NCBI GenBank assembly: GCA_028711505.1
Contig: JAQTSC010000003.1
Span: 9,397 to 73,396, forward strand
Length of the DNA stretch: 64,000 bases
From: Minisyncoccota bacterium
Lineage (GTDB): Bacteria; Patescibacteriota; Minisyncoccia; JAHISW01; Tagabacteraceae
Direction: 5' to 3'
Shown here: positions 40,360-58,490 of the stretch, in pieces
Position numbering within the stretch: position 1 is the first letter of the stretch
How the letters are laid out: the number at the start of each line of letters is the position of its first letter
Translations under genes and position numbers: made by a program
The notes under the pieces: generated by a model
Databases searched by the model: none
The model's input: only the letters and a program-made list of their open reading frames with translations
What the model was told of the DNA's origin: nothing

Positions 40360-40402
40360 TTTAACCCCTGCCCGGCGTATATCGGGTAGGGGTTGCTTTT
40401 TT
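40360..40402 (+). terminator. Rho-independent terminator
   Basis: aacccctgcccggcgtatatcgggtaggggtt hairpin followed by ttttt. Confidence 0.55.
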
Positions 40403-40852: not shown

Positions 40853-40913
40853 TCACCATGCGAGCGAAAGACCCCTTTTAGGGGTCTTTTTTTTGTGGTA
40901 ATTTATAAAAATA

Positions 40914-43766
40914 ATGCCGTATAACCATAAAAAAGTTGAAAAAAAATGGGCGGAGTTTTGGAAGGAAAACAAAACTTTTACTCCGGATTTAAATAAGGCG
41001 AAAAATCCTTTTTACGCCCTTTTTATGTTCCCGTATCCTTCGGCCGAAGGACTTCATATCGGAAATTTTTACGCTTTTACCTGTGTTGACGTGGTGGCGA
41101 AGTACAAAAAACTTCGCGGTTTTGACGTGTTTGAGCCTATTGGATTTGACGCTTTCGGTATCCATTCGGAAAACTACGCGCTTAAAATCGGCGAAAGGCC
41201 GAGAAAAATGCTTGATCGGACGGAAGAAAATTTCAGAAAGCAATTGATGTCTTCCGGTATTGGCTGTGATTGGACGCGTGAAGTTGATACCACTTTGCCG
41301 GAATACTACAAATGGACGCAATGGATTTTTACAAAACTTTTTGAGCGAGGTTTGGCTGTGCAAAAAGAAGCGTTTTTGAATTGGTGCCCCGGTTGTAAAA
41401 CTGTTTTGGCCGACGAACAGATTGTTAATGGAGTTTGTGAAAGATGCAAGTCGGTTCCGCAAAAGAAAATGATGAAGCAATGGTTTTTCAAAATAACCGA
41501 TTTTTCGGAGCGGCTTTTAACGGGGCTTGAAAATATGGATTGGAGCGAAATAACAAAATCGGCTCAGAAAAATTGGATTGGAAAATCGGAAGGAGCGGAA
41601 GTGGAATTTGAAATAAGCGGAGAAAAAGTAAAAGTTTTTACAACGCGGCCGGATACGCTTTTTGGCGCGACTTATTTTGTTCTTTCGCCGGAGCATTCGA
41701 TTGTTAAAAAAATAACGACTGATTCGCAAAAAAGCGAAGTTGAAAAATATATTAAAGAAGCGGGGTCTAAATCGGATTTGTTAAGGACGGAATCAAAAGA
41801 AAAAACGGGAGTTTTTACCGGAGCTTTTGCCGTAAATCCGGTAAATGGAGAAAAAATTCCGGTTTGGATAGCGGATTACGTTCTCATGGGTTATGGCACC
41901 GGCGCCATAATGGCCGTGCCGGCTCACGATGAACGCGACTTTGAGTTCGCGAAAAAATACGGGCTGGAAATAAAACAGGTTGTAGCCCCGGCTGTTTTTG
42001 ACCATGAAAATCCTCCGCAAGAAGGAAAAGAAAATACAAAAAGAAATATTGTTCATGTTCTTGTTAAGCATCCAAAAGAAGACAAGATTTTATTTTTGCG
42101 GTGGAAAACTCAGCCATGGAAAACGCCGATTACTGGCGGCATTGAAGAAGGCGAAGATGAAATTGCCGCAGCCAGGCGGGAAGTTTATGAAGAAACCGGA
42201 TACAAAAATCTTGAATTTGTAAAAAAACTTCCGTATCTCATTTCCGCCAAATTTTATGCTGCGCACAAAGACTTGAACAGGCAAACGTTAGCCCGCGTTA
42301 TAATGTTTAAACTTTTGGATTTGGAACAGGATGAAATTTCTGAGGAAGAAAAGAGAGACCATGATGCGGAGTGGATGGACATAAAAGATGTTGCTGATTT
42401 ATCTCCTGTTTCAGAAATGCCGCATATTGTTGATTGGCTAAATAACGGAGATAAAATTTTTGAAGGCGACGGCATAAACATAAATTCTGATTTTCTTGAC
42501 GGAATTGCCACAGACAAAGCGAAAGAAAAAATAATCGCATGGCTTGAGGAAAAAGGAATCGGTAAAAAGATGATAAATTACAAACTTCGCGACTGGTGCA
42601 TTTCGCGTCAAAGATATTGGGGACCGCCAATACCTATTATATATTGCGAAAAATGTGGTTCGACTGGCTCACCACAGGCTATGGTTGTGCCGGAAAAGGA
42701 TTTGCCGGTTTTGCTTCCTGACCTTAAAACCGGATGGGAGCCGTCCGGAGATGGTAAAGGGCCGCTTTCAAAAGTTTCTGAATTTATAAATGTTAAATGT
42801 CCGAAATGCGGGGGAGAAGCAAAAAGGGAAACCGATGTGATGGATAATTTTTTGGATTCGGCATGGTATTTTTTCCGTTATCTTTCGCCCGAAAAAGAAA
42901 ATAGAATTTTTGACGAAGCGATTGGCAAAAGATGGCTTCCCGTTGATATCTATATCGGAGGAAACGAGCACGCGGTGCTTCATCTTATGTATACCAGATT
43001 TATAACTATGGTTTTTCACGACCTTGGTCTTGTTGGTTTTGACAATCCTTTCAAGCGGTTCCGCGCGAACGGAATGATCTTGAAAGACGGGGCGAAGATG
43101 AGCAAGTCAAAAGGCAACGTTATTAATCCGGAGGAGTATGGAGAAAAAATCGGTTATGATGCCCTGAAATCTTATATTCTCTTTTTGGGCCCCATGAGCG
43201 AAGACAGGTCTTTTTCAGATGAGGGTGTTTTGGGAACGATGCGCTGGGTGGAAAGAATTTCTCGCCTTGAGGAAAAAGTTAAAGATGGGGCAAAAGACGG
43301 AAAGGAAATTGAGGCGAAATTGAATAAAATCGTAAAACAGGTATCCGATGATTTTGAAGATCAGAAATATAATACGGCGGTCGCCAAGCTCATGGAACTC
43401 ACTAATGTTTTATCGTCTGTAAAAGAATTTTCAAAAGAAACATGGCTAAAATTTTTGGGTATAATCGCGCCGTTCTTGCCGGCGCTTGCCGAAGAAATGT
43501 GGTCAAAATCGGGGAAAGACAAATCTATTTTTAGCGGCAAAAATTGGCCGGAATATGACCCAAAAATGGCTGAAGAAAACGAAGTTGAAATAGCTGTTCA
43601 GATAAACGGGAAATTCAGAGGTAGCGTAAAAGTTGCGAGAAGCGCCGGTCGTGAAGAAGTTGAAAAATTGGCTTTAATGGATGAACGTTTGGCAAAATAT
43701 ATAGGTCCTGAGAAACCGGGAAAGGTGATTTTTGTGAAAGATAAATTGGTGAATTTTGTTAAATAA
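40914..43766 (+). CDS. leuS: Leucyl-tRNA synthetase carrying an inserted NUDIX hydrolase domain
   Basis: HIGH (PYPSAEGLHIGNF), editing-domain motifs (TTRPDTLFGATY, AVPAHDERDFEFA), KMSKS. Between the editing domain and the downstream catalytic half lies an about 150-aa block with a perfect Nudix box GGIEEGEDEIAAARREVYEETGY; 950 aa. Confidence 0.95.
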   Translation: MPYNHKKVEKKWAEFWKENKTFTPDLNKAKNPFYALFMFPYPSAEGLHIGNFYAFTCVDVVAKYKKLRGFDVFEPIGFDAFGIHSENYALKIGERPRKMLDRTEENFRKQLMSSGIGCDWTREVDTTLPEYYKWTQWIFTKLFERGLAVQKEAFLNWCPGCKTVLADEQIVNGVCERCKSVPQKKMMKQWFFKITDFSERLLTGLENMDWSEITKSAQKNWIGKSEGAEVEFEISGEKVKVFTTRPDTLFGATYFVLSPEHSIVKKITTDSQKSEVEKYIKEAGSKSDLLRTESKEKTGVFTGAFAVNPVNGEKIPVWIADYVLMGYGTGAIMAVPAHDERDFEFAKKYGLEIKQVVAPAVFDHENPPQEGKENTKRNIVHVLVKHPKEDKILFLRWKTQPWKTPITGGIEEGEDEIAAARREVYEETGYKNLEFVKKLPYLISAKFYAAHKDLNRQTLARVIMFKLLDLEQDEISEEEKRDHDAEWMDIKDVADLSPVSEMPHIVDWLNNGDKIFEGDGININSDFLDGIATDKAKEKIIAWLEEKGIGKKMINYKLRDWCISRQRYWGPPIPIIYCEKCGSTGSPQAMVVPEKDLPVLLPDLKTGWEPSGDGKGPLSKVSEFINVKCPKCGGEAKRETDVMDNFLDSAWYFFRYLSPEKENRIFDEAIGKRWLPVDIYIGGNEHAVLHLMYTRFITMVFHDLGLVGFDNPFKRFRANGMILKDGAKMSKSKGNVINPEEYGEKIGYDALKSYILFLGPMSEDRSFSDEGVLGTMRWVERISRLEEKVKDGAKDGKEIEAKLNKIVKQVSDDFEDQKYNTAVAKLMELTNVLSSVKEFSKETWLKFLGIIAPFLPALAEEMWSKSGKDKSIFSGKNWPEYDPKMAEENEVEIAVQINGKFRGSVKVARSAGREEVEKLALMDERLAKYIGPEKPGKVIFVKDKLVNFVK

Positions 43767-43775: not shown

Positions 43776-44843
43776 TTGACCCGTTTTCTATACTATGGTA
43801 CATTACAAGATATGAAAAATACGGTTTCTTTCAACCCAATTTTAGTAACAAAAAAACTTTTAAACGGTCTTGACGAGAGACCGAGAGATGTTTTGGAAAA
43901 AAGGTTCGGTCTTTATGGAACCGGCGTAAAAACACTTGAGTCCATTGGCGGCGTTTACGGCATCACGAGAGAAAGAGTTCGGCAAATAGAAGCTTTTGCT
44001 TTGGACAAAATCAGACAGTCAAAAGATTTCTCTTCTTTTGGCGACGTCTTTGACGAATTAAAAAATCACATAGACACTGAAGGCGGGCTTGTTCAGGAAG
44101 AACATTTTCTTACGAGCAGAGCCAAACAGGATGACCATAAAAATCACATTCTTTTCCTTTTGGTTGTGGGAGAACCCTTTGAAAAAATAAAAGAAGATGA
44201 TCACTTCTATCATTCCTGGACAACCGATATGGAAAAAGCGGAAGCGATAATGAAATCTTTAAGGCGTTTTCACTCCGAATTTGACCAGAAGAAAGTTCTT
44301 TCGGAAAAAGAAATGCTTTTTGCCTTGGAGAAGAGACTAAAAGACGCCGCTCAGCATGAATTTGAGGAAAACATTCTGCATTCGCTGCTTAAGGTTTCAA
44401 AAATTCTTTCTTCCAACGCTTTAGGCGAGTGGGGCTCGGTTTATTCTTCTTTTATAAAACCCAGGGGAATGAGAGATTTTGCGCTTTTGGTAATGAGGAA
44501 ACACGGGTCTCCCATGCATTTTTCGGAAGTCGCCGGAGCAATAAAAGATATTTTTAAAAAACCGGCGCATGTTCAGACCGTTCATAATGAACTTATAAAA
44601 AATGAAGATAATTTTGTTTTGGTCGGCCGCGGACTTTATGCTTTGAAAGAATGGGGGTATGAAGGAGGAATAGTGCGCGATGTCATAAAAAAAGTTATTT
44701 CACAGAGCGGCCCGCTCGCGAAAGAAGATATCATAAAAAAGGTTTTAAAAGAACGATACGTCAAAGAAAACACAATTTTAGTCAATTTGCAGAATAAAGA
44801 GTTTTTCAAAAGGAACGAAAAGGGTTATTATACCCTTATATGA
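43776..44843 (+). CDS. Sigma-70 region-4 HTH domain protein fused to about 270-aa uncharacterised domain
   Basis: RPRDVLEKRFGL...TLESIGGVYGITRERVRQIEAFALDKIR matches sigma70_r4; stop overlaps next start (ATGA). Confidence 0.5.
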   Translation: MTRFLYYGTLQDMKNTVSFNPILVTKKLLNGLDERPRDVLEKRFGLYGTGVKTLESIGGVYGITRERVRQIEAFALDKIRQSKDFSSFGDVFDELKNHIDTEGGLVQEEHFLTSRAKQDDHKNHILFLLVVGEPFEKIKEDDHFYHSWTTDMEKAEAIMKSLRRFHSEFDQKKVLSEKEMLFALEKRLKDAAQHEFEENILHSLLKVSKILSSNALGEWGSVYSSFIKPRGMRDFALLVMRKHGSPMHFSEVAGAIKDIFKKPAHVQTVHNELIKNEDNFVLVGRGLYALKEWGYEGGIVRDVIKKVISQSGPLAKEDIIKKVLKERYVKENTILVNLQNKEFFKRNEKGYYTLI

Positions 44844-46018
44844 TAAGTATCTGGGAACTTTTTTCTGAAAACTATATTTTCTCCAATTTTTTATCGTGGC
44901 TTTTAAGCCTCTGGTTTGTTTGGCTGCCGGCGGGTCTTGCTTTTGCCTTTTGGGAATTATGGCTCAACGCGATAAGAAAGAAATTTTTGAGGAATATGCA
45001 ATGCGTTCTTCTCGAGATAAAAGTTCCGAGGGATATAATCAAAAGTCCCAAAGCCATGGAAACCGTTTTGAATTCTTTATATACGACTTTTGCCGGAAAC
45101 TGGTGGGCGAGATCAATAAAAGGCTATTTGCCGACTTATTACAGTCTGGAAATGGTCGGAATAAACGGCTCTGTCCATTTTTTCATTTATACCCAGAAAG
45201 GTTTTAGAAATCTTGTAGAATCGCAAATCTATTCTCAGTATCCGGACGCTGAAATATCCGAAGTCTCGGACTATTCTTACGCTTCTGATTTTGAAAACAG
45301 GGAAAATTGGAATATGTGGGGCGCGGAACTCGGGCTTACTAAAGAAGATCCTTATCCTTTAAGAACTTATATTGATTTTGACTTGCAGATGCCTCTATTA
45401 AAGGAAGAGCAGAAAGTGAATCCTATCGCTTCTTTTGTGGAATTTTTAGGTTCGCTTAAACAGGGCGAACAAGTATGGATTCAAATTTTGATAAAAGGAG
45501 CTTCGGGAAAAGATTGGATTGAAAAAGCAAAAAAACTTATCGCGAAATTGCTTGAAGAAGCGAAAACGGAATCAGGAGAAAAAAGGCCGTTTTTGACCGA
45601 AGGGGAAAGGGATACGATAAAGGCGATAGAAAAAAATGTTTCCAAGCTTGGATTTGAAACCGGAATAAGAATTATATACATGGCGAAAAAGGAGGTGTTT
45701 AATCAGCTGACCGTACCTTCAATTATCGGACTGTTGAACCAATATAGTTCGCAGACTTTGAACGGATTTAAGCCGGCTAATTCAACCGCCTCAAAACAGC
45801 CGTTTAAACAATTCCGCGAGAACCTAAGAAAGAAAAAAATGCTGAAAGCTTATCAGCCTCGCGGTTATTTTTACCGTCCGAACAAAAGAAAGCATTTTGT
45901 GTTGAACACCGAAGAGCTCGCCACCATCTATCATTTTCCGGGAAGAGTGGCGGAAACTCCGACTTTTGCAAGAGTTGAAACAAAGAAAGGCGAGCCTCCT
46001 GCGGCATTGCCGATTTAA
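44840..46018 (+). CDS. Membrane protein, partner of TraG/VirD4-like ATPase
   Basis: 392 aa; two N-terminal TM helices then soluble domain; translationally coupled to upstream gene. Confidence 0.4.
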   Translation: MISIWELFSENYIFSNFLSWLLSLWFVWLPAGLAFAFWELWLNAIRKKFLRNMQCVLLEIKVPRDIIKSPKAMETVLNSLYTTFAGNWWARSIKGYLPTYYSLEMVGINGSVHFFIYTQKGFRNLVESQIYSQYPDAEISEVSDYSYASDFENRENWNMWGAELGLTKEDPYPLRTYIDFDLQMPLLKEEQKVNPIASFVEFLGSLKQGEQVWIQILIKGASGKDWIEKAKKLIAKLLEEAKTESGEKRPFLTEGERDTIKAIEKNVSKLGFETGIRIIYMAKKEVFNQLTVPSIIGLLNQYSSQTLNGFKPANSTASKQPFKQFRENLRKKKMLKAYQPRGYFYRPNKRKHFVLNTEELATIYHFPGRVAETPTFARVETKKGEPPAALPI

Positions 46019-46066
46019 ACCAGCCATGGCTGCCGGCTTTTAATTTTAATTGACACCAGCTTAAAA

Positions 46067-47842
46067 ATGGAAGATCCCAATAAAGTAACTTATTTCGGGC
46101 GCACTAATTTTCGCAACGCGAAGGTTGATTTTGGCATTAAACAGAAAGACCGCACTAAGCATATGTATGTTATCGGAAAGACCGGTATGGGGAAGACTAC
46201 TCTTCTTGAAAATATGGCTGTTCAAGACATACGGAACGGCGAAGGCATCGCGATAGTTGATCCGCACGGTTCTTTCGCGGAAAAAATGCTGGATTATATT
46301 CCGAAAGAAAGAATAAAAGATGTCATATATTTCAACCCTGCCGATACTGAATTCCCGATAGCTTTTAACATCATGGAAGACGTGGGTCCCGAGCAAAGAT
46401 ATCTTGTGGCGTCCGGGCTTATGGGTGTTTTCAAAAAAATGTGGCCGGATGTCTGGTCCGCGAGAATGGAATATATTTTGAATAACGCCATCTTGGCTCT
46501 TTTGGAATATCCCGATGCCACTCTTCTTGGCGTAAACAGAATGCTTTCTGATAAGGAATATCGCAAAGAGGTGGTCGCGAACATATCGGATCCTGTTGTA
46601 AAAGCGTTTTGGGAGCAGGAATTTGCAAAATATACCGACAGGTTTGCCGCTGAAGCTACTCCCGCGATACAGAATAAAGTGGGTCAATTTACTTCAAATC
46701 CTTTGATAAGAAATATAATCGGCCAGCCGAAATCAAGTTTTGATTTCAGGCGAGTGATGGATGAAAAGAAAATAGTGATAATGAACTTATCAAAAGGGCT
46801 TATCGGAGAGCTTAATTCCCGGCTTATCGGCGCGATGCTCATAACAAAAATTTATCTTGCGGCGATGAGCCGCGCTTCGGCGAACGGCGAGAAACTTCCC
46901 GATTTTTATCTTTATGTCGATGAATTCCAGAATTTTGCCACGGAATCTTTTAAAGATATTCTTTCCGAAGCGAGGAAATACGGACTTGGGCTTATTTTGG
47001 CTCATCAATATATCGCGCAGATGGAAGAAGGCGTTGCGGACGCCGTCTTTGGAAACGTGGGCACACATATAATTTTCAGAGTCGGTCCTGCTGATGCCGA
47101 AGTTCTTGAAAAAGAATTTTCCCCCGATTTTGTGATAGAGGATATCGTGAATTTGGGTTTTGCCAGCATTTATCTCAAGCTCTCGATAGACGGCGTTCCT
47201 TCGCGTCCTTTTTCCGCCGCGACCTTGCCGCCGATAGAAAAACAAAGAGCGTCTTTCCGCGATGAAATTATAGATTTTTCGAGAATAACTTATTGCATCG
47301 CGAAAAAAGATGTTGAAAAAAAGATCATTGAATCTCTTGAACCGATTGAGAATACGGGAAGAAAAGAAGGAAAGACAAACCAGTCGTTTTCGCCTTCTGC
47401 CGTCAAAAACGAAGCAGAAAAAGAAGATAATCTTTCGGGAGGGCCCGAATTGTTTGAGGCGGTTTGCGCGGAATGCGGAAAACGCACGATGGTTCCTTTT
47501 CAGCCCGATGGAAAAAGACCTGTTTATTGTCAAAAACATAGACCGAAAAACGATGTTTCGGCTTTTGATTTCGGCCAACATGACCGCCAAAAAGAAAATA
47601 GGCAAAGAGAGATTAACAGAGAATTTTCCAATGCTTCGACGCCTCCCATGTCTTTGCGTGAACTTTCCGGAAACACTACGGAGTTCAAAAAGAAAATAAA
47701 AAAAACAGAGCCTGATTTTAAGGGGCTTCGAGAGCTTTTGGCGGAAGCCATGGGAAAAGATGTGTCTGGCGCTTCGGCGTCAGCAGATGGGAAAAGAGAT
47801 GATGCTAAAATTATAAAACCCGGAGATAGCGTGAAGTTTTGA
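46067..47842 (+). CDS. TraG/TraD/VirD4-like (FtsK/HerA superfamily) P-loop ATPase with C-terminal zinc ribbon
   Basis: Walker A VIGKTGMGKTTLL, IAIVDPHG, Walker B FYLYVDEFQNFA, LILAHQY; C-terminal CAECGKRTMVPFQPDGKRPVYCQKH followed by low-complexity tail. Confidence 0.65.
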   Translation: MEDPNKVTYFGRTNFRNAKVDFGIKQKDRTKHMYVIGKTGMGKTTLLENMAVQDIRNGEGIAIVDPHGSFAEKMLDYIPKERIKDVIYFNPADTEFPIAFNIMEDVGPEQRYLVASGLMGVFKKMWPDVWSARMEYILNNAILALLEYPDATLLGVNRMLSDKEYRKEVVANISDPVVKAFWEQEFAKYTDRFAAEATPAIQNKVGQFTSNPLIRNIIGQPKSSFDFRRVMDEKKIVIMNLSKGLIGELNSRLIGAMLITKIYLAAMSRASANGEKLPDFYLYVDEFQNFATESFKDILSEARKYGLGLILAHQYIAQMEEGVADAVFGNVGTHIIFRVGPADAEVLEKEFSPDFVIEDIVNLGFASIYLKLSIDGVPSRPFSAATLPPIEKQRASFRDEIIDFSRITYCIAKKDVEKKIIESLEPIENTGRKEGKTNQSFSPSAVKNEAEKEDNLSGGPELFEAVCAECGKRTMVPFQPDGKRPVYCQKHRPKNDVSAFDFGQHDRQKENRQREINREFSNASTPPMSLRELSGNTTEFKKKIKKTEPDFKGLRELLAEAMGKDVSGASASADGKRDDAKIIKPGDSVKF

Positions 47843-47848
47843 TGCGAT

Positions 47849-49330
47849 ATGAAATTTGGGTTTGTTATTTTTTTGTTTTTAGCCGTTCCGCTTTTGGCTT
47901 GCATGCCGCAAGGCGTGGTTTTTGCCGAAAGCGGTATTTTTATTAATGAAATAATGTATGACTTGGAAACGGGAAGCGATGACGGAAGAGAGTGGATTGA
48001 AATTTATAACGGAAGCGGCGTTGAAATTGATTTAAATAATTTCAGAATTTTTGAGGCCGATGTCAGTCATAAAATAATCCCGAAAGAGAAAGGAGAAAGT
48101 CTAATCATTTCATCCGGCGGTTTCGCGGTTGTCGCGGATAACCCCGCAAAATTTTTAATCGATTGGCCCGATTTTGGCGGAATTTTAGGGGACAGCTCTT
48201 TTTCTTTGAGCAACAAGGGAGAAACTCTAATTCTGGAAACTGCCGAACTTATTGATGTGGATAGTTTTGCTTACGCGCCGGAACTTGGCGCAAACGGGGA
48301 TGGAAATTCTCTTCAGAAAAATGGTTTAAACTGGGAGGCTTCATCTCCTACTCCCGGAGACGATAATTCATCGGTGGAACCGATTTCATTACTTGAAGAA
48401 GAGCCGGTTCTTCAGGTGCAGGAAGAAATGGTCAGCGATTCTGCGTTCGTGGCGCTCGTGCCTGAATTTCAGATAAAATCTTACGCGGGGAGCAACAAAA
48501 CGGTTGTTGCCGGAGCGTCCGTTGAATTTCGCGGCAACGGGTACAATGTTGACGGAACCTTACTCCAAAATCCACGCTATCTTTGGAATTTCGGCGATGG
48601 AGAAGTAAAGGACGGGCAAAATATTTTTCATACTTACAGGTATCCGGGAGAATATGTCGCGGCGCTTGATGTTTCTTCTGGCGGCTATTCTAATTTGGAC
48701 ACTCTTTTTGTAAAAGCTCTTCCGAATGAAATTTTCATTTCCGAAATAAAGACAGGAGCGGATTCTTTTGTCGAAATCAGGAATCCGTCAAAAGAAGAAA
48801 TAAATATTTCCGGCTGGCAGATAAAGTCCGGAGTCGATGTTTTTTGTTTCCCTCAGAACAGTTTTATAAGACCTTTAAGTTTTTTGGTCGCGCCTTTGTC
48901 TCTAAAAGAGATTATTTTGCCCGAAGGGAAAGGAAGCGTCAATCTTTTTTATTCAAATGATTACGCGGCGGACAAATTTGAATATAGCGGGAGTTTGGCT
49001 GGCGGGCAAAGTTTTTCCCGACTCTCAAAAGACTCTGCTGTTTTAATGACAAAAGAAACTCCGGGCGCGGAAAATAAACCGGCATCTTCCTTTGCTTCCG
49101 TCGGAGCTGATGGGGATAATCTGCAGGTTGTTTTTCAAAAACAAAAAGAAGCAGCAGCTCCGGAAGAAAAAGAAGAAATTGCTGAAAACGAAAGAGAAAT
49201 TATTTCGGAAAACAACACCGCTGCCGCCGCTATCGCTTCCAAAAAACCGTTTTTTCTCTACTTTTCGCTTGCCGGCGGAATTTCGATTTTAGCGGCTTTG
49301 GGATTTATCGTCATACGCCGCCAAGGTTGA
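47849..49330 (+). CDS. Secreted/surface-anchored protein with two lamin tail domains (LTD)
   Basis: Signal peptide; LTD 1 GIFINEIMYDLETGSDDGREWIEIYNGSGVEIDL; LTD 2 EIFISEIKTGADSFVEIRNPSKEEINISGWQI; C-terminal TM anchor FFLYFSLAGGISILAALGFIVIRRQG. Confidence 0.7.
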   Translation: MKFGFVIFLFLAVPLLACMPQGVVFAESGIFINEIMYDLETGSDDGREWIEIYNGSGVEIDLNNFRIFEADVSHKIIPKEKGESLIISSGGFAVVADNPAKFLIDWPDFGGILGDSSFSLSNKGETLILETAELIDVDSFAYAPELGANGDGNSLQKNGLNWEASSPTPGDDNSSVEPISLLEEEPVLQVQEEMVSDSAFVALVPEFQIKSYAGSNKTVVAGASVEFRGNGYNVDGTLLQNPRYLWNFGDGEVKDGQNIFHTYRYPGEYVAALDVSSGGYSNLDTLFVKALPNEIFISEIKTGADSFVEIRNPSKEEINISGWQIKSGVDVFCFPQNSFIRPLSFLVAPLSLKEIILPEGKGSVNLFYSNDYAADKFEYSGSLAGGQSFSRLSKDSAVLMTKETPGAENKPASSFASVGADGDNLQVVFQKQKEAAAPEEKEEIAENEREIISENNTAAAAIASKKPFFLYFSLAGGISILAALGFIVIRRQG

Positions 49331-50494
49331 TTTTAGAGTTTGTTTAAAATTAAAATCTCTGTTTATTTTTTCCCAAAGCTTGAAAGGGAGCTCGTTCCTT
49401 AATTTGGAATCTTCCATTATCTTTTTTATCGATTTTTTTATTTCAAGAGGGTTTGCCGGGTCTATGAGAATTCCTGTGTCTTTATCTTCTATTATTTCCC
49501 CGACTCCGCCTACGTTTGTCGCGATAACAGGAAGGGAAGCAAGCCCGGCTTCAAGAAGAACATAAGGCAGTCCTTCTTTTAGAGAGGGGAGGATGAAGAT
49601 GTCAAATGCTTTTAAATAAGGATAGGCAGGGTGGAGATTGTTTAAAAGAAAGATTTCTTTTTCCAGTTTGTAGTCTGAAATTTGTCTCTCGAGTTTTTGC
49701 TTGTCTTCTCCAAAACCGATTATTACTGTCTTTATTTTGTTTTTCGTTTCGTTGTTTTCTTTGTGGATGTTCTTTAATTTTAAAATTGCGTCTACGAGAT
49801 ATTTTTGTCCTTTGTTTTTTGTGAATTCGCCTATTGAACCGATTAGGAAATCGTAATCCGAAAGAGGCAATCCGTATTCGGCAATCAATTTTTCTCTGGC
49901 TTTTTGTTTCGTTAGAAATTCATGTTCTTCTATCTTAATGCCGTTATGTATGGCTAGAAGTTTTTTGCGCGGGGCAATTTTGTTTTTTATGGCGATTTTG
50001 CGGTCAAATTCCGAAACGCAAATTATTTTTTTATAAAAGAGACAAGTGATTTTGCTGAAAATTTTTATGAGAAATAATTGCCATTCGGGGCGTTTTTCAT
50101 TAAATGTCCAGCCGTGAGCGGTAAAAACAGAGGGAAGCGAGTAGTGAAAAGATAAAATTTTGTAAATTAATATTGCCGGGCCCGCGATACCGCCGGCTTT
50201 CGGGCTTGAAACGTGGATTATGTCCGGTCGTATCCTGAAGACAAGAGCGACGATTTCGAAAAAAGCCGAAATATCTTTTAAAAAACTTACATCCCGCTGG
50301 AAGTTTTTTATTTCAAAATATGGAATAGCTTTTACAATAATTTTTTTACGCAATTCTCCTCCCGGAGCGCCGGCAACGGATACGTCAAAATTTTCTCTTG
50401 GCAGCGCGGTTGCCAAATCGTAAACGTATTTTCCTGCTCCTGCCCATACGGATTTAGTGATTATATAGAGTATTTTTTTGGGTTTTTTATCCAT
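49289..50494 (-). CDS. Glycosyltransferase family 4 (GT-B, group 1)
   Basis: C-terminal EGLPYVLLEAGLASLPVIATNVGG motif; probable start MDKKPKKILYIITKS at 50494; tracked ORF to 50608 overlaps divergent gene. Confidence 0.7.
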   Translation of the reverse strand: MDKKPKKILYIITKSVWAGAGKYVYDLATALPRENFDVSVAGAPGGELRKKIIVKAIPYFEIKNFQRDVSFLKDISAFFEIVALVFRIRPDIIHVSSPKAGGIAGPAILIYKILSFHYSLPSVFTAHGWTFNEKRPEWQLFLIKIFSKITCLFYKKIICVSEFDRKIAIKNKIAPRKKLLAIHNGIKIEEHEFLTKQKAREKLIAEYGLPLSDYDFLIGSIGEFTKNKGQKYLVDAILKLKNIHKENNETKNKIKTVIIGFGEDKQKLERQISDYKLEKEIFLLNNLHPAYPYLKAFDIFILPSLKEGLPYVLLEAGLASLPVIATNVGGVGEIIEDKDTGILIDPANPLEIKKSIKKIMEDSKLRNELPFKLWEKINRDFNFKQTLKSTLAAYDDKSQSR

Positions 50495-50561
50495 GATTTT
50501 GCTATAATCGTTATTATAATCGCTTTTAGGGCGTTTTAGTATCATTTTTGCTTTGTAAAAC

Positions 50562-51581
50562 ATGGCGAGAGGAAAAAATATAAAAATTAATTTTCCGCTT
50601 ATTAACACCCATACTCACGCGGCAATGACGGCTTTTCGCGGCATGGCGGAAGATCTGCCGTTAAAAGATTGGCTTGAAAAATATATTTGGCCCGCGGAAA
50701 AGGAAAAAGTCCGGCCGGAATTTGTTTATAAAAATACGAAAGAGGCCATTCAAGAGATGAAGAGAAACGGAATAAAAGTTTTTAATGATATGTATTTTTT
50801 CAGCGAAGAAGTTGCCCGTGCGGCTGAGGAAGAAAAAATAATGGCGGTTGTCGGCGAAGTTATCTTGGATTTTCCGACAAACAGCGCCGAAACCCCGGAG
50901 GAAGCGCTTCAAAAAACCGAAAAACTTATTTTGAAATACAAAAATAATCCGTTTATTTCCGTTGCCGCGGCTCCTCATTCAATATATGCGCTTTCGGAAA
51001 AGTGGCTTGTTGAAGCGAAAAATTTGGCAAGAAAATATGGCGTGCTTTATCATATCCATCTTTCCGAAACAAAAAAAGAATTTGACGATTGCGCGGCAAA
51101 GACAGGTTTAACTCCTGTCGGCTACATGAACAAACTCGGGCTTTTGGATGACAAAACGATTTTGGCTCATTGCGTTTGGCTAGCGGATGAAGATATGGAT
51201 ATTCTTTCAAAAACAAAAGCGAACGTCAGTCATTGTCCTTTGAGCAATTTAAAGCTCGGCTCCGGAATTGCGCCGATTTCCAAAATGCTTGAGAAAGGAG
51301 TGAATATCTGTCTGGGCACCGACGGAGCCGCCAGTTCAAACCGATTGGATATCTGGGAAGCGGGGAAATTTGCCGCTCTTCTCCAGAAAGGAATAACCAA
51401 TGACCCGTCAAAGATTTCAGCGAAGGATGTAATGGAAATGATGAGCGTAAACGGGTTAAAGGCGTTGGGTATAAGCGAATTTGAAGGGAAAGGCGTCGCG
51501 GAAATGAAAAACGAAATTGAAAACTCAGGCGATTTTTCGCAGCTTTATGAGCTTGGATCCGGAGAAATTGATTTTCATTGA
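50562..51581 (+). CDS. Amidohydrolase-family metal-dependent deaminase (MtaD/SsnA/guanine-deaminase-like)
   Basis: INTHTHAAMTAFRG metal-binding HxH motif; HIHLSE and CLGTDGAAS downstream motifs. Confidence 0.6.
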   Translation: MARGKNIKINFPLINTHTHAAMTAFRGMAEDLPLKDWLEKYIWPAEKEKVRPEFVYKNTKEAIQEMKRNGIKVFNDMYFFSEEVARAAEEEKIMAVVGEVILDFPTNSAETPEEALQKTEKLILKYKNNPFISVAAAPHSIYALSEKWLVEAKNLARKYGVLYHIHLSETKKEFDDCAAKTGLTPVGYMNKLGLLDDKTILAHCVWLADEDMDILSKTKANVSHCPLSNLKLGSGIAPISKMLEKGVNICLGTDGAASSNRLDIWEAGKFAALLQKGITNDPSKISAKDVMEMMSVNGLKALGISEFEGKGVAEMKNEIENSGDFSQLYELGSGEIDFH

Positions 51582-51650
51582 CACGGCGCGGTTCAGATAG
51601 TAGTTTTACAATAGCTCTTTATATTAAAAAAGAAAGCGAGGTGCTAAAAA

Positions 51651-52082
51651 ATGCTGAATATGATTCTTTTTGATACGAATGCCAGAGAAGGCGAAATTCT
51701 TTTCTTGTTGGCCAGCCGCGGAAGACATGCGGATATCCCAGGCTATCAGTCCGTTCAAAGTTTTTTTCTTGATAAAGGCATTGTGATTTTTTCCCGGCTT
51801 GATTGTTCCCCCGCGGATTCTTTTAAAGTGGGAGTAGCCGGAAACAGCCTTTTTACAACGTTAACATTTGCTGACGAGATTAAAGATTGGCTTTTGAAGT
51901 GGAAAATTACTTTTGAGCAGGCGCGCTTGGAATTTTTTTCTAAAAAAGAAGCTCGGCGGTACTTTGGCGGGTTAAGAGAAGAAACTGAAAAAAATCGCGG
52001 ATTTAATTTGAGGTGGGTTCGTGAAAAAATATCTCGGTATAAAGAAGCGGAGGAAATAGACCTTGCGAATTTGCGTTCGTGA
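51651..52082 (+). CDS. Hypothetical protein
   Basis: 143 aa, RBS upstream; terminator downstream. Confidence 0.3.
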   Translation: MLNMILFDTNAREGEILFLLASRGRHADIPGYQSVQSFFLDKGIVIFSRLDCSPADSFKVGVAGNSLFTTLTFADEIKDWLLKWKITFEQARLEFFSKKEARRYFGGLREETEKNRGFNLRWVREKISRYKEAEEIDLANLRS

Positions 52083-52117
52083 GTGTTTTGAACACAGGCG
52101 GAAAGCGTAATATAAAA

Positions 52118-52147
52118 GTCCCGGTTTTAGCCGGGACTTTTTTGTTT
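52118..52147 (+). terminator. Rho-independent terminator
   Basis: aaagtcccggttttagccgggacttt hairpin followed by tttg. Confidence 0.55.
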
Positions 52148-52217
52148 TTTGCCTTTTGCTGAAACCCGCGGTCTTTTTAAAAAGTTTACCTTTTGGTAGA
52201 GTAAATATAAGAATATT

Positions 52218-53381
52218 ATGAAAATCCTTATCGCAACCGGTATTTATCCGCCCGATATCGGCGGTCCGGCGGTTATGCTTGAGGCGCTTGCCAGTTCTCT
52301 TGAAGAATCCGGTTTTGAAGTAAAAATTATCACTTATTCCGACAGGGGCGGAATTGAAGGCGGAAAAATTTTTAGGATCTCAAGAAAACTTCCTTCGGCC
52401 GCAAGGTATATCCGGTATTTTTTTAGAATGGCGGGACTTTTAAGGCGAGCGGACATCATTTATGTGACCGACGTTTATAGCGTCGGTTATTTCGCTTATT
52501 TTCTTAAAAAAATATCGGGTAAAAAGTATGTGGTGCGTTTTGCCGGAGACAGCGCGTGGGAAAAAGCGGCTGCGTCCGGGGCAATAAAAGAAAATCTCCT
52601 GGAATTTCAGGAAAAGAAATATGGGAAGGAAATTGAAAAAGCAAAAAATAAAAGAAAAAAAATTCTTCTTTTCGCGGACGGGATAATTTGCGTAAGTGAG
52701 TTTATGAAAAAAATCGCGTTAAAAATCGGAGTGGATGAGAGAAAAATAAAGGTAATCTATAATTCGGCTGATTTTATGGATTGCGGTTCTGACGATACCG
52801 CTGTTTCAATTATAAAAAATAAATACGCTCCGAATGGAGAAAAAATAATTTTAACCGCGTGCAGACTTGTGCCGTGGAAAGGAATAGACGGCGTTATCAA
52901 AGCGATTCCGGAGATAGAGAGAAAAGTCGGTTCCGTGAAGTTTTTAGTTTTGGGTGATGGTCCGGAAAAGGAAAATTTAAAGAGGCTTTCGGAAGAAAAA
53001 AGAATCTCCGGGAAGATTTGTTTTTTGGGGAAAATAGGGAGGGATGATATTTTTGATTATTTCAAAGCCGCCGACGTTTTTGTTTTAAACAGCAAATATG
53101 AAGGTTTTTCTCACACCGTTCTTGAAGCCATGAAAACGGGTGTCCCTGTTGTCGTGTCAAACGAGGGGGGAAATCCGGAAGTTGTCGAAAGCGGGAAAAG
53201 CGGTTTTTTGGTTGAATATAACAATGAAAGCCAGATAGCGGAAGCGATTTCCCGCATCTTGGACGACAAAAAATTGGCCGAAGCTCTTTGCGCCGGAGCC
53301 AAAGAAAGATTGGAAAATTTCAATTGGGGCAATGTTGCGGGAGAAACGATTAAAATTTTTAAAGAGCTATCTTCAAAATGA
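52218..53381 (+). CDS. Glycosyltransferase family 4
   Basis: EGFSHTVLEAMKTGVPVVVSNEGG C-terminal GT4 motif. Confidence 0.8.
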   Translation: MKILIATGIYPPDIGGPAVMLEALASSLEESGFEVKIITYSDRGGIEGGKIFRISRKLPSAARYIRYFFRMAGLLRRADIIYVTDVYSVGYFAYFLKKISGKKYVVRFAGDSAWEKAAASGAIKENLLEFQEKKYGKEIEKAKNKRKKILLFADGIICVSEFMKKIALKIGVDERKIKVIYNSADFMDCGSDDTAVSIIKNKYAPNGEKIILTACRLVPWKGIDGVIKAIPEIERKVGSVKFLVLGDGPEKENLKRLSEEKRISGKICFLGKIGRDDIFDYFKAADVFVLNSKYEGFSHTVLEAMKTGVPVVVSNEGGNPEVVESGKSGFLVEYNNESQIAEAISRILDDKKLAEALCAGAKERLENFNWGNVAGETIKIFKELSSK

Positions 53382-54823
53382 AAGGCATCCTCCTTATAAA
53401 TCCGGCTTTTAATATCGCGAAAGAAAATTACGACAGTTCTGTTTCTGTCGGTCTTTTAAGTATCGCTTCTTATCTTAAAAGCAAAGGTATTCCCGTAAAA
53501 ATTATAGACGCGGCGCGCCAGAAAAACTATCGTAAACTTATTGAAAAAGAAGCCGTAGATTTTGATTATGTCGGGCTTTCCGTGATGACTACGCAAATTC
53601 CTTCCGCTTTTGAGATCGCGGAAATTGTGAGAAAAGTCAATCCTGCGGCGAAAATAGTTTGGGGAGGCCCTCATCCGACTTTTTTCGCGAGACAGACAGC
53701 GGAGAATTCTCTTGTTGATATCGTATGCAACGGAGAAGGCGAGGAAGTGGCTTATGAAATTTTAAGCGGGAAAGAATTAAAAAGCATAAACGGTATCGTT
53801 TTTAAGGATAACGCCGACGTTATTGTTAACCCGCCGCACGAACTTCACGATCCTTCAAAAATGCCTCTTTTTAACTGGGATTTGATTGAAGAAGATGTCC
53901 TTAAAAATTTGAAACTTATCCCGTCTCTTACTTCGCGCGGATGCCCTCATCGCTGCACTTTCTGTATCAATGCCATTTTAAAAAATAAATGGAGGCCGAG
54001 AACTGTTGATCAAGTGCTTGATGATTTGCGAAAAATAAAATCAAAGAAGTTTTTTCAGGGAAAAAATTTGAGGTTTTGGGATGAGAATTTTTTCGTGGAC
54101 ATAATCCGCGCCAAAAAGATAATAGAAGGAATTATCAGGGAAGACATTATAATTCCTTGGGAGACGACAGTCCGCGCCAATTATCTGCAAAACGGCATGA
54201 TTGACGATGATTTTTTAAAAAAATTAAAGCAATCGGGATGCTATCTTTTGTCGTTTGGAGCGGAATCCGGCTGCCCGAGAATGCTTAATGTGATGAAAAA
54301 GGATATTTCCCCGGAAGATATTTTAAGAGCGGCGGAGATGAGCTTGCGGCATGGAATTGTTCCCCAGTTTTCGTTTATGATAGGCCTTCCCGGGGAGAGC
54401 AAAAGCGATATGTTTGCGACCTTAAGGCTTATAGATAAATTGGTAAAATTCGGCGATAAAATCCAGATTTTGGGGCCGCAGGCCTTCCGTCCGTACCCCG
54501 GCTCGGAACTTTATGAGGAGTGTTTGAAAGCCGGCTGGAAAGAGCCCCTATCGCTTGAAGAATGGGGAAATCTGGCAAAAGACGAGCTGAATTATCTTTC
54601 GGTAAAAAATTTTCCATGGGTGAAAGACAAAGATTTTGTGGAATCAATGGAAGCGTATGTGAGGTTCGGGGCCCACTCTTTCAAAAGCGCCATCGGTTCT
54701 TCGGTAAAAGCCCCGTTTTTTATAAAGCTTGGCTTTGTTTTGCTTTGCAAGTTCAGATGGAAGCTTAAATTTTTCTTTTTTCCGTTTGAATTCAAAATAG
54801 CCAAAATGTTTTTAACGAAATAA
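53378..54823 (+). CDS. B12-binding (cobalamin) radical SAM enzyme
   Basis: N-terminal B12-binding fold followed by radical SAM core with CPHRCTFC (CxxxCxxC). Confidence 0.75.
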   Translation: MKGILLINPAFNIAKENYDSSVSVGLLSIASYLKSKGIPVKIIDAARQKNYRKLIEKEAVDFDYVGLSVMTTQIPSAFEIAEIVRKVNPAAKIVWGGPHPTFFARQTAENSLVDIVCNGEGEEVAYEILSGKELKSINGIVFKDNADVIVNPPHELHDPSKMPLFNWDLIEEDVLKNLKLIPSLTSRGCPHRCTFCINAILKNKWRPRTVDQVLDDLRKIKSKKFFQGKNLRFWDENFFVDIIRAKKIIEGIIREDIIIPWETTVRANYLQNGMIDDDFLKKLKQSGCYLLSFGAESGCPRMLNVMKKDISPEDILRAAEMSLRHGIVPQFSFMIGLPGESKSDMFATLRLIDKLVKFGDKIQILGPQAFRPYPGSELYEECLKAGWKEPLSLEEWGNLAKDELNYLSVKNFPWVKDKDFVESMEAYVRFGAHSFKSAIGSSVKAPFFIKLGFVLLCKFRWKLKFFFFPFEFKIAKMFLTK

Positions 54824-54830
54824 AACGCCG

Positions 54831-57641: not shown

Positions 57642-57650
57642 CTTAGTCCG

Positions 57651-57678: not shown

Positions 57679-57695
57679 TCGTATATTTAAAAAAA

Positions 57696-58489: not shown

Positions 58490-58490
58490 C

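Follow-up and report, generated by a model that had tools for sequence, protein, structure and literature searches.

The VirD4-type coupling proteins (T4CPs: VirD4, TrwB, TraD, Cag-beta, DotL) share a P-loop core with a helical insertion, and the tails of TraD and DotL bind adaptors. FtsK and SpoIIIE belong to the same ATPase superfamily, as does EccC of type VII secretion, where EccE accompanies the FtsK-like ATPase; the archaeal Ced system shows that an ATPase derived from conjugation can serve DNA import. In Patescibacteria, T4CP homologues are found in 2,918 of 3,035 genomes and VirB4 in 2,417, and only 148 of 5,713 T4CP genes are near virB4 (PMC12102498). In S. epibionticum, T4SS genes are essential and the T4CP homologue, which may not be an orthologue of the family described here, is non-essential (PMC12102498). 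These counts and the essentiality data make a plain role as the coupling protein of a T4SS doubtful. Beside virB4, Patescibacteria also commonly encode TrsD, known from pGO1 and described as a separate protein remotely related to the N-terminal part of VirB4 (PMC12102498).

Here, we describe such a motor and its neighbours in a 64,000-nucleotide stretch of patescibacterial DNA (the window). The motor family is already known in Patescibacteria as an "orphan"; its partners are new here, and they make its role testable. With moderate confidence, we read the locus as a vertically inherited Patescibacteria module in which a conjugation-type (VirD4/T4CP) ring ATPase is split in two polypeptides; most likely, its DUF8128 partner tethers this split motor to the membrane, and the conduit that it serves is encoded at another place in the genome.

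A coupling-protein ATPase and its membrane-anchored neighbour

Four genes sharing one direction in the window ORF list make up the locus, and they and the motifs quoted for them in the initial annotation are all present where it had placed them:

43776-43804, plus strand: promoter-like site TTGACC-17-TACATT with TG, from a consensus scan only
43776-44843, plus strand: mechanical ORF of the sigma4-HARE gene, 355 aa
43812-44843, plus strand: sigma4-HARE protein from its probable ATG start, 343 aa, with Sigma70_r4 and HARE-HTH matches
44840-46018, plus strand: DUF8128 protein (PF26449), 392 aa, one N-terminal transmembrane (TM) helix and a cytoplasmic alpha+beta domain
46067-47842, plus strand: VirD4/T4CP-family P-loop ATPase, 591 aa, from Pfam T4CP models and a structure model
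47465-47539, plus strand: zinc ribbon CxxC-x17-CxxH, ATPase residues 467-491 (zf_Tbcl_2, TIGR04272)
47711-47839, plus strand: conserved ATPase C-terminal peptides PDFKGLRELL and KIIKPGDSVKF, from an alignment of orthologues
47849-49330, plus strand: lamin tail domain (LTD) surface protein, 493 aa, from Pfam (LTD, PKD) and hydropathy

The sigma4-HARE stop and the DUF8128 start overlap by 4 nt (ATGA), and gaps of 48 nt and 6 nt follow between DUF8128 and the ATPase and between the ATPase and the LTD gene. The ORFs are real genes; homologue searches give at least 8000 matches for the ATPase and 3075 for DUF8128, the latter counted as cluster representatives at 50% identity.

The ATPase had been read as a VirD4/TraG coupling protein, to be checked by HMM search, and the searches bear this out: TrwB_AAD_bind (2.7e-17, 63 bits), T4SS-DNA_transf (3.2e-10, 40 bits) and TraG-D_C (4.8e-8, 33 bits) all match above their curated Pfam cut-offs, DUF87 matches at 1.1e-6, and the ATPase profile matches TrwB among PDB sequences. 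Walker A (GKTGMGKTT, residues 37-45, nt 46175-46201), the IAIVDPHG motif (residues 61-68) and Walker B (YLYVDEFQNF, residues 281-290, nt 46907-46936) form a core with a helical, all-alpha-like insertion at about residues 111-232, as in T4CPs. The best structural matches of the model, which is of moderate confidence (pLDDT 65), are Cag-beta 8dol (2.9e-5) and DotL 6sz9 (1e-4), with the VirB4 C-terminal domain 4ag6 ranking lower (8e-3). Orthologues across Patescibacteria lineages are 55-70% identical. Against the NCBIfam models TraD, CD1115 and CedD the ATPase scores 46-54 bits, where the equivalog cut-offs are 250-647. It also differs from T4CPs in carrying a zinc ribbon, in lacking the N-terminal TM domain (hydropathy finds no transmembrane or hydrophobic segment in the 591 aa) and in being chromosomal, apparently vertical and away from virB4, relaxase or T4SS genes. 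Likeness to Ced is slight: the NCBIfam models CedD (3e-12) and CedB match weakly, far below the cut-offs (46 against 600 bits), and the neighbourhood has neither a pilin gene nor one for a polytopic, CedA-like membrane protein.

A role in chromosome handling, in which a tethered ring and an HTH reader standing in for the FtsK gamma domain would serve to clear or segregate the DNA of dividing cells, appears quite unlikely. A membrane-tethered ring of this superfamily with an HTH protein is conceptually like FtsK and its gamma domain, but the ATPase has no FtsK_SpoIIIE match in Pfam, the T4CP models span its whole core including a T4CP-type helical insertion, its structural matches are T4CPs, and the DNA-binding domains are others. 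Moreover, ftsK is annotated at least in the Saccharibacterium TM7x, so that a replacement is not obviously needed, and envelope genes abound in small genomes, hence the signal from the neighbourhood is weak.

DUF8128 has a single TM helix (hydropathy, residues 17-38, nt 44888-44953), and the cytoplasmic alpha+beta domain behind it has a fold like the VirB4 N-terminal domain; since antiparallel alpha+beta folds recur among the weaker matches, the VirB4 part matched would be the N-terminal domain, which has no P-loop. EccE ranks second among the structural matches, which recalls the EccC-EccE pair. DUF8128 and the ATPase together show the layout of VirB4 (TrwK), an N-domain plus an ATPase, and the helix that precedes the soluble domain resembles VirB3-VirB4 fusions. 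In contrast to VirB4, the motor half resembles VirD4 more than VirB4, the pair matches neither CagE_TrbE_VirB nor VirB4_CagE, and the two halves are separate, often unlinked genes, DUF8128 adjoining sigma4-HARE and not virB4. An ATPase that has no TM segment and starts its Walker A at residue 37, and a DUF8128 protein with one TM helix, look like complementary parts. The DUF8128 C-terminal peptide LNTEELATIYHFPGRVAETPTF... (nt 45902-46015) is highly conserved and predicted to be disordered.

The ATPase also carries its own C-terminal additions. Its ribbon (CAECGKR...CQKH, residues 467-491) is one domain of the CxxC-x17-CxxC type (zf_Tbcl_2 1.5e-13, TIGR04272 6.3e-14) with His as fourth ligand; C467, C470 and C488 are invariant among the aligned orthologues. 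Domains of this type bind zinc in small proteins of Methanosarcina mazei (PMC12704099). The initial annotation called the ribbon unusual, yet it is the rule where the ATPase adjoins DUF8128 (30/33 orthologues, against 1/57 non-adjacent ones), and the tail that it called basic is of mixed charge (21 K+R, 17 D+E). Within this otherwise variable tail, PDFKGLRELL (nt 47711-47740) and KIIKPGDSVKF (nt 47807-47839) stand out: L554 is invariant, P549, R555, L558, P585 and G586 are nearly so, and of the 30 DUF8128-adjacent orthologues with a ribbon, 17 have the terminal motif. By analogy with TraD and DotL, whose tails bind adaptors, these peptides are candidate partner-binding motifs.

Fused relatives on phages and plasmids

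Counterparts of the two halves are found in one chain in a phage protein, Bacillus phage G gp156. DUF8128 matches the profile phrog_5156 (824 positions) at 75-206 (1.2e-10), and the ATPase matches it at 397-807 (3e-64). DUF8128 residues 97-378 align with gp156 residues 47-320 (LNVQEMSQFIHLPGK against LNTEELATIYHFPGR within this alignment), and ATPase residues 35-390 with gp156 residues of about 381-752. gp156 thus holds DUF8128-like and ATPase-like halves in the order of the window, both significant, so that the window proteins look like one split protein; together with the VirB4-like fold, this makes the initial "membrane partner" call plausible. SPO1 gp27.4 (phrog_5156) and the long T4CPs of actinomycete plasmids, here an 812-aa Embleya protein, appear to have the same modules in the same order, the likeness of their N-terminal halves to DUF8128 being weak or not significant (E 8e-4 and 0.015). 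Both adjoin a Replic_Relax gene, an HTH DNA-handling partner encoded alongside as at our locus. Unlike the window genes, all three relatives are fused and on mobile or viral DNA, the forms of phage G and Embleya have a VirB4-like ATPase upstream, and gp156 lacks the N-terminal membrane helix.

Relatives of 23-41% identity occur in 637 plasmid and 47 phage records, and PADLOC gives generic matches to its mad8, DndH and HerA models. A decayed integrated conjugative element, a phage remnant or a defence-system ATPase is nevertheless highly improbable: the ORFs scanned include neither an integrase nor a relaxase, the window shows no repeats and no shift in composition, its neighbours are housekeeping genes with even GC content, DUF8128 has no PADLOC match and no other defence-system components were found, and the family is highly conserved in stable housekeeping synteny across many lineages, with an ATPase tree that follows gene-order clades. 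From these sequence comparisons, the locus is most likely a vertically inherited, core chromosomal module of Patescibacteria.

Gene neighbourhood and the DNA-binding partner

The protein upstream of DUF8128 had been annotated as a sigma-70 region 4 protein at 43776-44843. The domain holds (Sigma70_r4 1.8e-13, nt 43857-44018; 1e-10 against solved RpoD/SigA region 4); the start probably does not, as TTG 43776 falls inside the promoter-like site and ATG 43812 is the more likely start. This site, which follows the LeuRS stop (43766) and precedes that ATG, could conceivably be the operon promoter, such consensus matches being about equally frequent in shuffled sequence. Towards the C-terminus, the match to a HARE-HTH winged helix (nt 44469-44654, 3.4e-5) scores just below its curated threshold (24.6 bits, Pfam cut-off 25.9). 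With no transmembrane segment by hydropathy, the protein is, by its sequence, of a cytoplasmic, DNA-binding type.

The sigma4-HARE gene is directly upstream of DUF8128 in 60/64 and in 23/23 loci. In loci centred on the ATPase, this gene and DUF8128 are neighbours in 23/80 and apart in 57/80; in loci centred on DUF8128, the figures are 8/50 and 42/50. Each scan gave more than 600 matches, of which the closest 80 were sampled; most of these loci look like Paceibacteria, so that the fractions do not stand for the phylum as a whole. The trio is found again, its junctions tight or overlapping, between at least four kinds of flanking genes, including SecDF...Pgk, LeuRS...LTD and FtsW...EF-P, and the full four-gene set is confined to the window's clade and to a small number of further ones (L003, L082, L084, L090, L094/95). 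In a neighbour-joining tree, the non-adjacent, ribbon-less ATPases form one derived clade, sister to the window's clade, which fits one ATPase orthologue whose adjacency is ancestral. Lineages with an unlinked ATPase, such as Yonathbacteria and Nomurabacteria (L015, L054), still carry DUF8128, co-occurrence in one genome being judged per named lineage.

The much tighter link of DUF8128 to sigma4-HARE (60/64) than to the ATPase (8/50), a gene order and a 4-nt overlap like those of sigma/anti-sigma operons, and an N-terminal domain close to primary-sigma region 4 could suggest a sigma/membrane anti-sigma-like regulatory pair, with the ATPase and LTD genes as mere neighbours. We consider this very unlikely: by Pfam search the protein lacks sigma region 2 and so cannot act as a sigma factor, the DUF8128 fold is that of the VirB4 N-terminal domain and not of an anti-sigma factor, phage G fuses DUF8128-like to ATPase-like domains, and the ribbon tracks DUF8128 adjacency.

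For the split motor, we propose the following roles for the DUF8128-ATPase interaction, the substrate and the direction of transport. DUF8128 would be membrane anchor and docking subunit, holding the ATPase ring on the inner membrane face, with its disordered C-terminal peptide as the likely contact. The two-HTH protein, the zinc ribbon and the ATPase C-terminal peptides would recruit the substrate, for which a nucleic acid such as DNA, perhaps in the form of a nucleoprotein, is the likeliest choice, and ATP hydrolysis would move it to or from a membrane conduit encoded outside the locus. The leading candidate for this conduit is the Patescibacteria VirB4-type T4SS elsewhere in the genome; a Giovannonibacteria genome (L171, GCA_001778935.1) that carries the trio is listed as VirB4-positive.

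The surface protein and DNA uptake

The fourth gene encodes a signal-peptide-like N-terminus (residues 1-27, nt 47849-47932), a C-terminal TM anchor (residues 467-490, nt 49250-49315; both by hydropathy) and two LTD stretches (Pfam 4e-22; nt 47924-48274 and from about nt 48737) in which INEIMYD, EWIEIYN, ISEIKTG, VEIRNP and ISGWQI are all located. The LTD profile confirms the double-LTD call, which had missed an intervening PKD domain (residues 212-288, nt 48482-48712, 1e-10) that matches collagenase PKD domains in the PDB. Extracellular nucleases, ExeM among them, can carry LTDs (PMC6085458). Like such secreted proteins, this one has an LTD right after the signal peptide and a C-terminal hydrophobic anchor; unlike them, it lacks a nuclease or catalytic domain, and its two LTDs flank a PKD.

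Could the four genes then be a self-contained minimal apparatus for DNA uptake or export, the LTD protein capturing extracellular DNA, the membrane protein providing passage and the ATPase pulling? Same-layout LTD homologues follow the ATPase directly with very short gaps (6 nt here) in 25/76 loci of several clades, and deleting the ExeM LTD slows DNA degradation in vitro (PMC6085458). Patescibacteria cannot make nucleotides and the competence genes of S. epibionticum are dispensable for growth, so that another import route is sought. This reading is nonetheless unlikely. Transport requires a membrane conduit, as the "minimal DNA uptake or export module" of the initial annotation did, and the locus encodes none: there is no polytopic membrane protein, DUF8128 and the LTD protein having one TM helix each. 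Two thirds of the ATPase loci lack the LTD gene, many with a glycosyltransferase gene directly downstream instead, and the conserved block around the locus also holds unrelated housekeeping genes (MurD, RsmI, GT4), which makes adjacency alone weak evidence. DNA binding by bacterial LTDs, as previously assumed, is not established either: ExeM degrades extracellular DNA without its LTD, for which membrane targeting was proposed (PMC6085458). The LTD-PKD-LTD protein is probably a co-transcribed, membrane-anchored surface protein, and we infer that it is an accessory or lineage-specific neighbour of the split motor, not a core part.

The gene, motif, domain and coupling-protein assignments made earlier thus stand, and the fixed four-gene neighbourhood and the self-contained module do not. 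The view that this is not a classical T4SS also holds: no channel protein, VirB4, VirB6, pilin or relaxase is found in a scan of the window's ORFs that includes every one of at least 400 aa, about 10 ORFs of 130-280 aa and all shorter ones lying outside it; a small pilin or VirB3-like gene is possible among these short ORFs. The LTD gene converges with a GT4 glycosyltransferase gene on the minus strand (49289-50608), the two overlapping at the 3' end of the former.

A coupling-protein-type ATPase in a housekeeping stretch

We read the locus as a split, chromosomally fixed machine made of a coupling-protein-type ATPase, a membrane anchor resembling the N-terminal domain of VirB4 and a partner with two helix-turn-helix (HTH) domains. 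The observations of the initial annotation hold: its four co-directional ORFs are all present as described, every motif that it quoted lies at the expected residues, and its domain calls are confirmed by Pfam and NCBIfam. Its interpretation, a minimal DNA uptake or export module, is supported in part. The genes are:

43776-44843, + strand, sigma-70 region 4 protein (sigma4-HARE) ORF, 355 aa; its stop and the start of the next gene share 4 nt (ATGA)
44840-46018, + strand, membrane protein (DUF8128) ORF, 392 aa; 48-nt gap before the ATPase gene
46067-47842, + strand, ATPase ORF, 591 aa; 6-nt gap before the LTD gene
47849-49330, + strand, lamin-tail-domain (LTD) surface protein ORF, 493 aa; its 3' end overlaps a convergent glycosyltransferase gene

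ATG 43812, 3' of a promoter-like site, is the probable start of the first gene; apart from that site the promoter/terminator scan was uninformative, and an Rfam scan of the region found no RNA element.

The window belongs to a Patescibacteria (Candidatus Pacebacteria) metagenome-assembled genome and is housekeeping in character, encoding elsewhere aminoacyl-tRNA synthetases, EF-P, BipA, Ddl, RF2, FtsEX, tmRNA and tRNAs as well as a glycosyltransferase/radical-SAM cluster. There is no compositional shift across it. The earlier statement that it holds no relaxase, VirB4 or pilin gene agrees with a scan of its ORFs, which met none of these and neither VirB6 nor an integrase; the scan took in every ORF of at least 400 aa and, below that length, all but about ten of 130-280 aa and those shorter still. 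PADLOC gave generic matches to the ATPase (mad8 5e-16, DndH, HerA) and a region-4 match of the sigma-r4 protein to MzaA; neither DUF8128 nor the LTD protein matched, and the locus corresponds to no anti-phage system known to PADLOC. That it is a remnant of a mobile element or of a defence system is a less likely reading.

The ATPase has the FtsK/HerA-type P-loop core of type IV coupling proteins (T4CPs), with both Walker A and Walker B located, and matches their family profiles above the curated thresholds: TrwB_AAD_bind (63.2 bits, cut-off 20.5; 2.7e-17), T4SS-DNA_transf (39.9 bits, cut-off 20.1; 3.2e-10) and TraG-D_C (33.4 bits, cut-off 22; 4.8e-8). When a profile of the family was compared with PDB sequences, TrwB was the sole match. 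The predicted structure is of moderate confidence overall (pLDDT 65), good over residues 50-300 and high over helices 111-232; as modelled, the protein resembles solved T4CPs, including their helical (all-alpha) insertion, and its top-ranking PDB matches are Cag-beta (8dol, 2.9e-5) and DotL (6sz9_A, 1e-4), with the VirB4 C-terminal domain (4ag6, 8e-3) behind them. An FtsK-like role is less likely, as the FtsK_SpoIIIE motor profile has no match at E <= 0.01 (Pfam). Named equivalogs are not reached at NCBIfam cut-offs: TraD scores 54 bits (366), CD1115-type VirD4 52 (250), CedD 46 (600), and VirB4_CagE 22 (643).

Two properties set this family apart from classical coupling proteins. VirD4-type proteins typically carry an N-terminal membrane domain, but the window ATPase has no hydrophobic segment (hydropathy); Walker A begins at residue 37, leaving no room for such a domain, and the aligned orthologues, which share 55-70% identity over ~420 residues across many named Patescibacteria lineages, all begin at the same point. 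Moreover, the ATPase is not encoded with VirB4, VirB6 and the like or with a relaxase: no mating-pair-formation gene or relaxase occurs among the recurrent gene clusters of 160 related loci.

The C-terminal zinc ribbon (TIGR04272/PF23477) scores 51.4 bits (cut-off 36) and 50.6 bits (cut-off 27), at 1.5e-13. The zinc-ribbon tail noted earlier thus stands, since the CxxC-x17-CxxC models match above threshold, with the correction that the fourth ligand is here a His; across orthologues C467, C470 and C488 are invariant and the fourth position is Cys or His. The tail that follows, described as basic, is in fact of mixed charge.

The closest relative of the ATPase outside the Patescibacteria is encoded on a Sulfitobacter mediterraneus plasmid (NZ_CP081110.1, 99994-101181; locus L177). 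It has 395 aa, no tail and 40.6% identity to the ATPase core, and it lies alone among transposases and a recombinase on this alphaproteobacterial plasmid.

DUF8128, the proposed membrane partner, and its fused relatives

The 392-aa protein is PF26449 (DUF8128), by a precomputed match on the identical protein P0121; the same family is precomputed on nearly all its homologues. Of its 3075 cluster representatives, the 150 top-ranking ones are without exception stand-alone proteins ~300-490 aa long. A search of the literature for 'DUF8128' brought up no paper. Hydropathy predicts a single transmembrane helix. An AlphaFold2 model built from 33 homologues is confident (pLDDT 83, pTM 0.81) and shows helices at the N-terminus followed by an alpha+beta domain. 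Compared with the PDB by Foldseek, its top 13 matches are TrwK/VirB4 of plasmid R388 (E 2e-6 to 3e-4). The lower-ranked matches are antiparallel alpha+beta folds and DUF8128 has no Walker motifs, which suggests that the match lies in the N-terminal, non-ATPase domain of VirB4. This relation is visible only through fold comparison of the model, as the DUF8128 profile found no match among sequences of solved structures; nor does CagE_TrbE_VirB match the protein in Pfam. Conservation within the family is among the highest over the last 38 residues (LNTEELATIYHFPGRVAETPTF...), of which the final 23 (370-392) are predicted disordered, a combination typical of a partner-binding peptide, which this C-terminus may be.

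A fused counterpart of the pair appears in phages. The PHROG family phrog_5156, an 824-position profile of unassigned function, is matched by DUF8128 over positions 75-206 (1.2e-10) and by the ATPase over positions 397-807 (3e-64). One of its members, gp156 of Bacillus phage G (825 aa), aligns through ~residues 381-752 with ATPase residues 35-390 (28% identity, 1e-34) and through residues 47-320 with the DUF8128 profile (hhalign probability 95.4%, E 1.9e-8), the latter alignment taking in the conserved C-terminal motif of DUF8128. With both halves aligning in order, a single phage protein is collinear with the pair of window genes, which are split where it has its inter-domain linker. The phage link of DUF8128 came solely from the PHROG profile and hhalign: its profile has no match in eight 'viral' contigs bearing ATPase relatives, and tblastn against phage and plasmid collections found none. 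To judge from these alignments, DUF8128 and the ATPase together have the layout of VirB4, an N-terminal domain and a motor, with a motor that is VirD4-like. In VirB4 itself, whose N-terminal domain DUF8128 resembles in its modelled fold, N-domain and ATPase form one chain, while their window counterparts are separate genes that match no VirB4 family profile; phage G gp156 likewise has both modules in one chain where the window has two genes. A VirB4-type layout can thus occur with a VirD4-like motor, split or fused.

The same long architecture is found in SPO1 gp27.4 (906 aa) and in an 812-aa 'conjugative DNA transfer' protein of an Embleya plasmid. The N-terminal half of gp27.4 aligns marginally with DUF8128; homology of the Embleya N-terminal half to DUF8128 was rejected, the alignment not being significant. 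The Embleya gene belongs to a Gram-positive-type T4SS (type IV secretion system) cluster with PrgI/VirB3, a VirB4-like ATPase, the long T4CP, Replic_Relax and NlpC/P60.

Both gp156 and gp27.4 are DUF8128-like and T4CP-like fusions of large Bacillus phages (marginally so for the N-terminal half of gp27.4). In the phage G locus (L175, 87999-97114) the VirB4-like ATPase gp155 adjoins gp156; the SPO1 locus (L176, 89074-98102) has Replic_Relax gp27.3 and the actin-like segregation protein gp27.9 near gp27.4.

Linkage, neighbours and evolution of the trio

Conservation was followed in two sets, one centred on the ATPase (80 species representatives, from a scan of genome contigs) and one on DUF8128 (80 metagenome contigs). 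Each consists of the top 80 out of more than 600 matches, and the fractions therefore speak for relatives of the window rather than for the phylum at large; annotation of the loci was mechanical (longest ORFs, phmmer and BLAST clustering), and organism labels are unreliable on several assemblies. The genes for sigma4-HARE, DUF8128 and ATPase follow each other in order in 23/80 ATPase-centred loci, usually as SecD-SecF-[trio]-Pgk-RecJ-RNaseH-MurJ. The 57 others have neither DUF8128 nor sigma4-HARE within 8 kb and usually read MurD-MurD-RsmI-hydrolase-ATPase-(LTD)-glycosyltransferases. Around DUF8128, sigma4-HARE lies 5' in 60/64 loci and LeuRS 5' of sigma4-HARE in 31/41, and the ATPase follows 3' in just 8/50; the commonest genes there are MltG, MnmA and AlaRS. 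The four genes therefore do not form a fixed neighbourhood. Giovannonibacteria offer a third context, FtsW-[trio]-...-EF-P, in which DUF8128 and the ATPase overlap by 4 nt, and the window order, LeuRS-[trio]-LTD-GT4, unites both common arrangements.

In a neighbour-joining tree of ATPase cores, the non-adjacent ATPases all fall in one derived clade, sister to that of the window, which suggests a single orthologue whose gene adjoined DUF8128 ancestrally, the locus having split later. The presence of two ATPase paralogues in each genome, which could also have produced both synteny patterns, was rejected, as the tree fits one orthologue with a derived ribbon-less clade; this verdict concerns the sampled ATPases, and further paralogues may exist elsewhere in these genomes. 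The zinc ribbon follows the linkage, being present in 30/33 DUF8128-adjacent orthologues versus 1/57 others. Lineages with unlinked ATPases (Yonathbacteria, Nomurabacteria) also have DUF8128, compared at the level of named lineages. The idea that the gene 5' of the ATPase in loci lacking DUF8128 (cluster 4) might be a diverged DUF8128 was rejected, since its sequence looks, by inspection, glycoside-hydrolase-like and unrelated and a 120-sequence DUF8128 profile did not match it.

Among the 160 compared loci (L001-L160), the non-adjacent ATPases have lost the ribbon and carry another conserved C-terminal peptide (...EVPEE.LRKILK...).

The first protein of the trio matches Sigma-70 region 4 (1.8e-13, Pfam) and, below threshold, HARE-HTH. 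It is not a sigma-70 factor, which would combine regions 2 and 4: Pfam gives Sigma70_r4 alone, with region 2 absent, and NCBIfam sigma models touch region 4 only, all far below their cut-offs. Hydropathy predicts no transmembrane helix. A regulatory pair of the sigma/anti-sigma kind, with DUF8128 as its membrane half, would account for the constant association of the two genes and is a less likely explanation than a partnership with the ATPase.

The presence of a double LTD surface protein was upheld: PF00932 matches two stretches above threshold (79.1 bits, cut-off 34.3; 4e-22), with a PKD domain between them, a signal-peptide-like N-terminus and a C-terminal anchor (hydropathy). An LTD-type protein of the same layout (signal peptide, LTD starting INEIAWMG or FNEIMYD, C-terminal anchor) lies directly 3' of the ATPase in 25/76 loci, across real gaps of 2-39 nt, and in several clades of the ATPase tree; it does so in 5/26 loci with DUF8128 upstream versus 20/50 without, and many other loci have glycosyltransferase genes there instead. 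The ATPase-LTD linkage is real but optional. A self-contained uptake or export apparatus, as first proposed for these genes, is unlikely: for all the confirmed parts, the locus encodes no polytopic membrane protein and the LTD gene can be missing. DNA binding by the LTD protein is only putative, given that the LTD of the nuclease ExeM is dispensable for extracellular DNA degradation and has been suggested to serve in membrane targeting (PMC6085458).

Nucleic-acid supply and other features of the window

Our preferred reading, a split coupling-protein-type machine, would work as follows. DUF8128 would anchor the ATPase ring and dock it at the membrane; sigma4-HARE and the zinc-ribbon tail could bring in the substrate, a nucleic acid or nucleoprotein, an analogy drawn from T4CP accessory proteins and from the Replic_Relax proteins encoded beside the fused forms; and the conduit would be encoded elsewhere, most plausibly by a Patescibacteria T4SS. 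Interaction, substrate and direction of transport are all putative.

This reading bears on a wider question, how Patescibacteria, which account for much of bacterial diversity and are unable to make nucleotides, obtain nucleic acids. Uptake of host RNA has been described in a 2026 preprint, with the route left unresolved. In S. epibionticum, competence genes are dispensable for growth and the T4SS is essential; the essential T4SS cluster has no recognisable coupling protein or relaxase (Wang et al., 2023). Quinonero-Coronel et al. (2025; PMC12102498) counted 5,713 VirD4-type homologues in 2,918/3,035 Patescibacteria genomes (96%), with VirB4 in 2,417 genomes, and only 148 of the 5,713 T4CP genes near virB4. 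In S. epibionticum they found the T4CP homologue not essential and the T4SS genes essential, and they state that a change of function of the T4CP homologues cannot be ruled out. They also describe TrsD, a stand-alone protein remotely related to the N-terminal part of VirB4 and encoded mostly beside virB4. In their table GCA_001778935.1, a genome carrying the trio, is VirB4-positive. It would be an outside chance that the trio, with the LTD protein in some lineages, is the core coupling-protein machine importing host DNA or RNA, a growth-relevant route beyond competence and perhaps partly VirB4-independent. What is new here is a parts list for one orphan T4CP family widespread in Patescibacteria, namely a VirB4-N-terminal-domain-like anchor (so far a Pfam DUF), a two-HTH partner, a ribbon that tracks anchor linkage and a fused relative in large Bacillus phages; it renders a vague annotation testable by specific binding, localisation and knock-out experiments.

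Elsewhere in the window, LeuRS (40914-43766, +) carries a NUDIX hydrolase domain (residues 380-508; 1.4e-14) that separates the editing domain from the second half of the catalytic core, an insertion shared by the LeuRS of a related contig (L172, 2138-5002); with two stand-alone NUDIX proteins (32223-32675 and 37007-37474, both +), three NUDIX domains lie within 12 kb. Just 5' of LeuRS, two strong terminator-like hairpins, at 40362-40395 (+, 14 bp) and 40866-40890 (+, 11 bp), each followed by a T-run, flank two small membrane-protein-like ORFs. The isoleucyl-tRNA synthetase (14122-17484, +, 1120 aa) has a His_Phos_1 domain inserted at residues 484-644 (5.8e-37). A 642-aa protein (18086-20014, +) without a Pfam match has a single N-terminal membrane helix together with a long region that is probably extracellular.

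A large surface-glycan-type cluster (49289-63490) comprises five GT4 glycosyltransferases, two B12-binding radical-SAM enzymes, a methyltransferase, a polysaccharide deacetylase, an asparagine synthase and a PMT-type mannosyltransferase; GT4 genes lie 3' of the ATPase in many related loci too. Within its span, a 143-aa ORF (51651-52082, +) without a Pfam match resembles, by eye, an ORF of a related locus (L088, 11009-11443), the two sharing the pattern ...LVSRGR...FS.L.CSP...KVG.AGN..., and may be a conserved small Patescibacteria protein.
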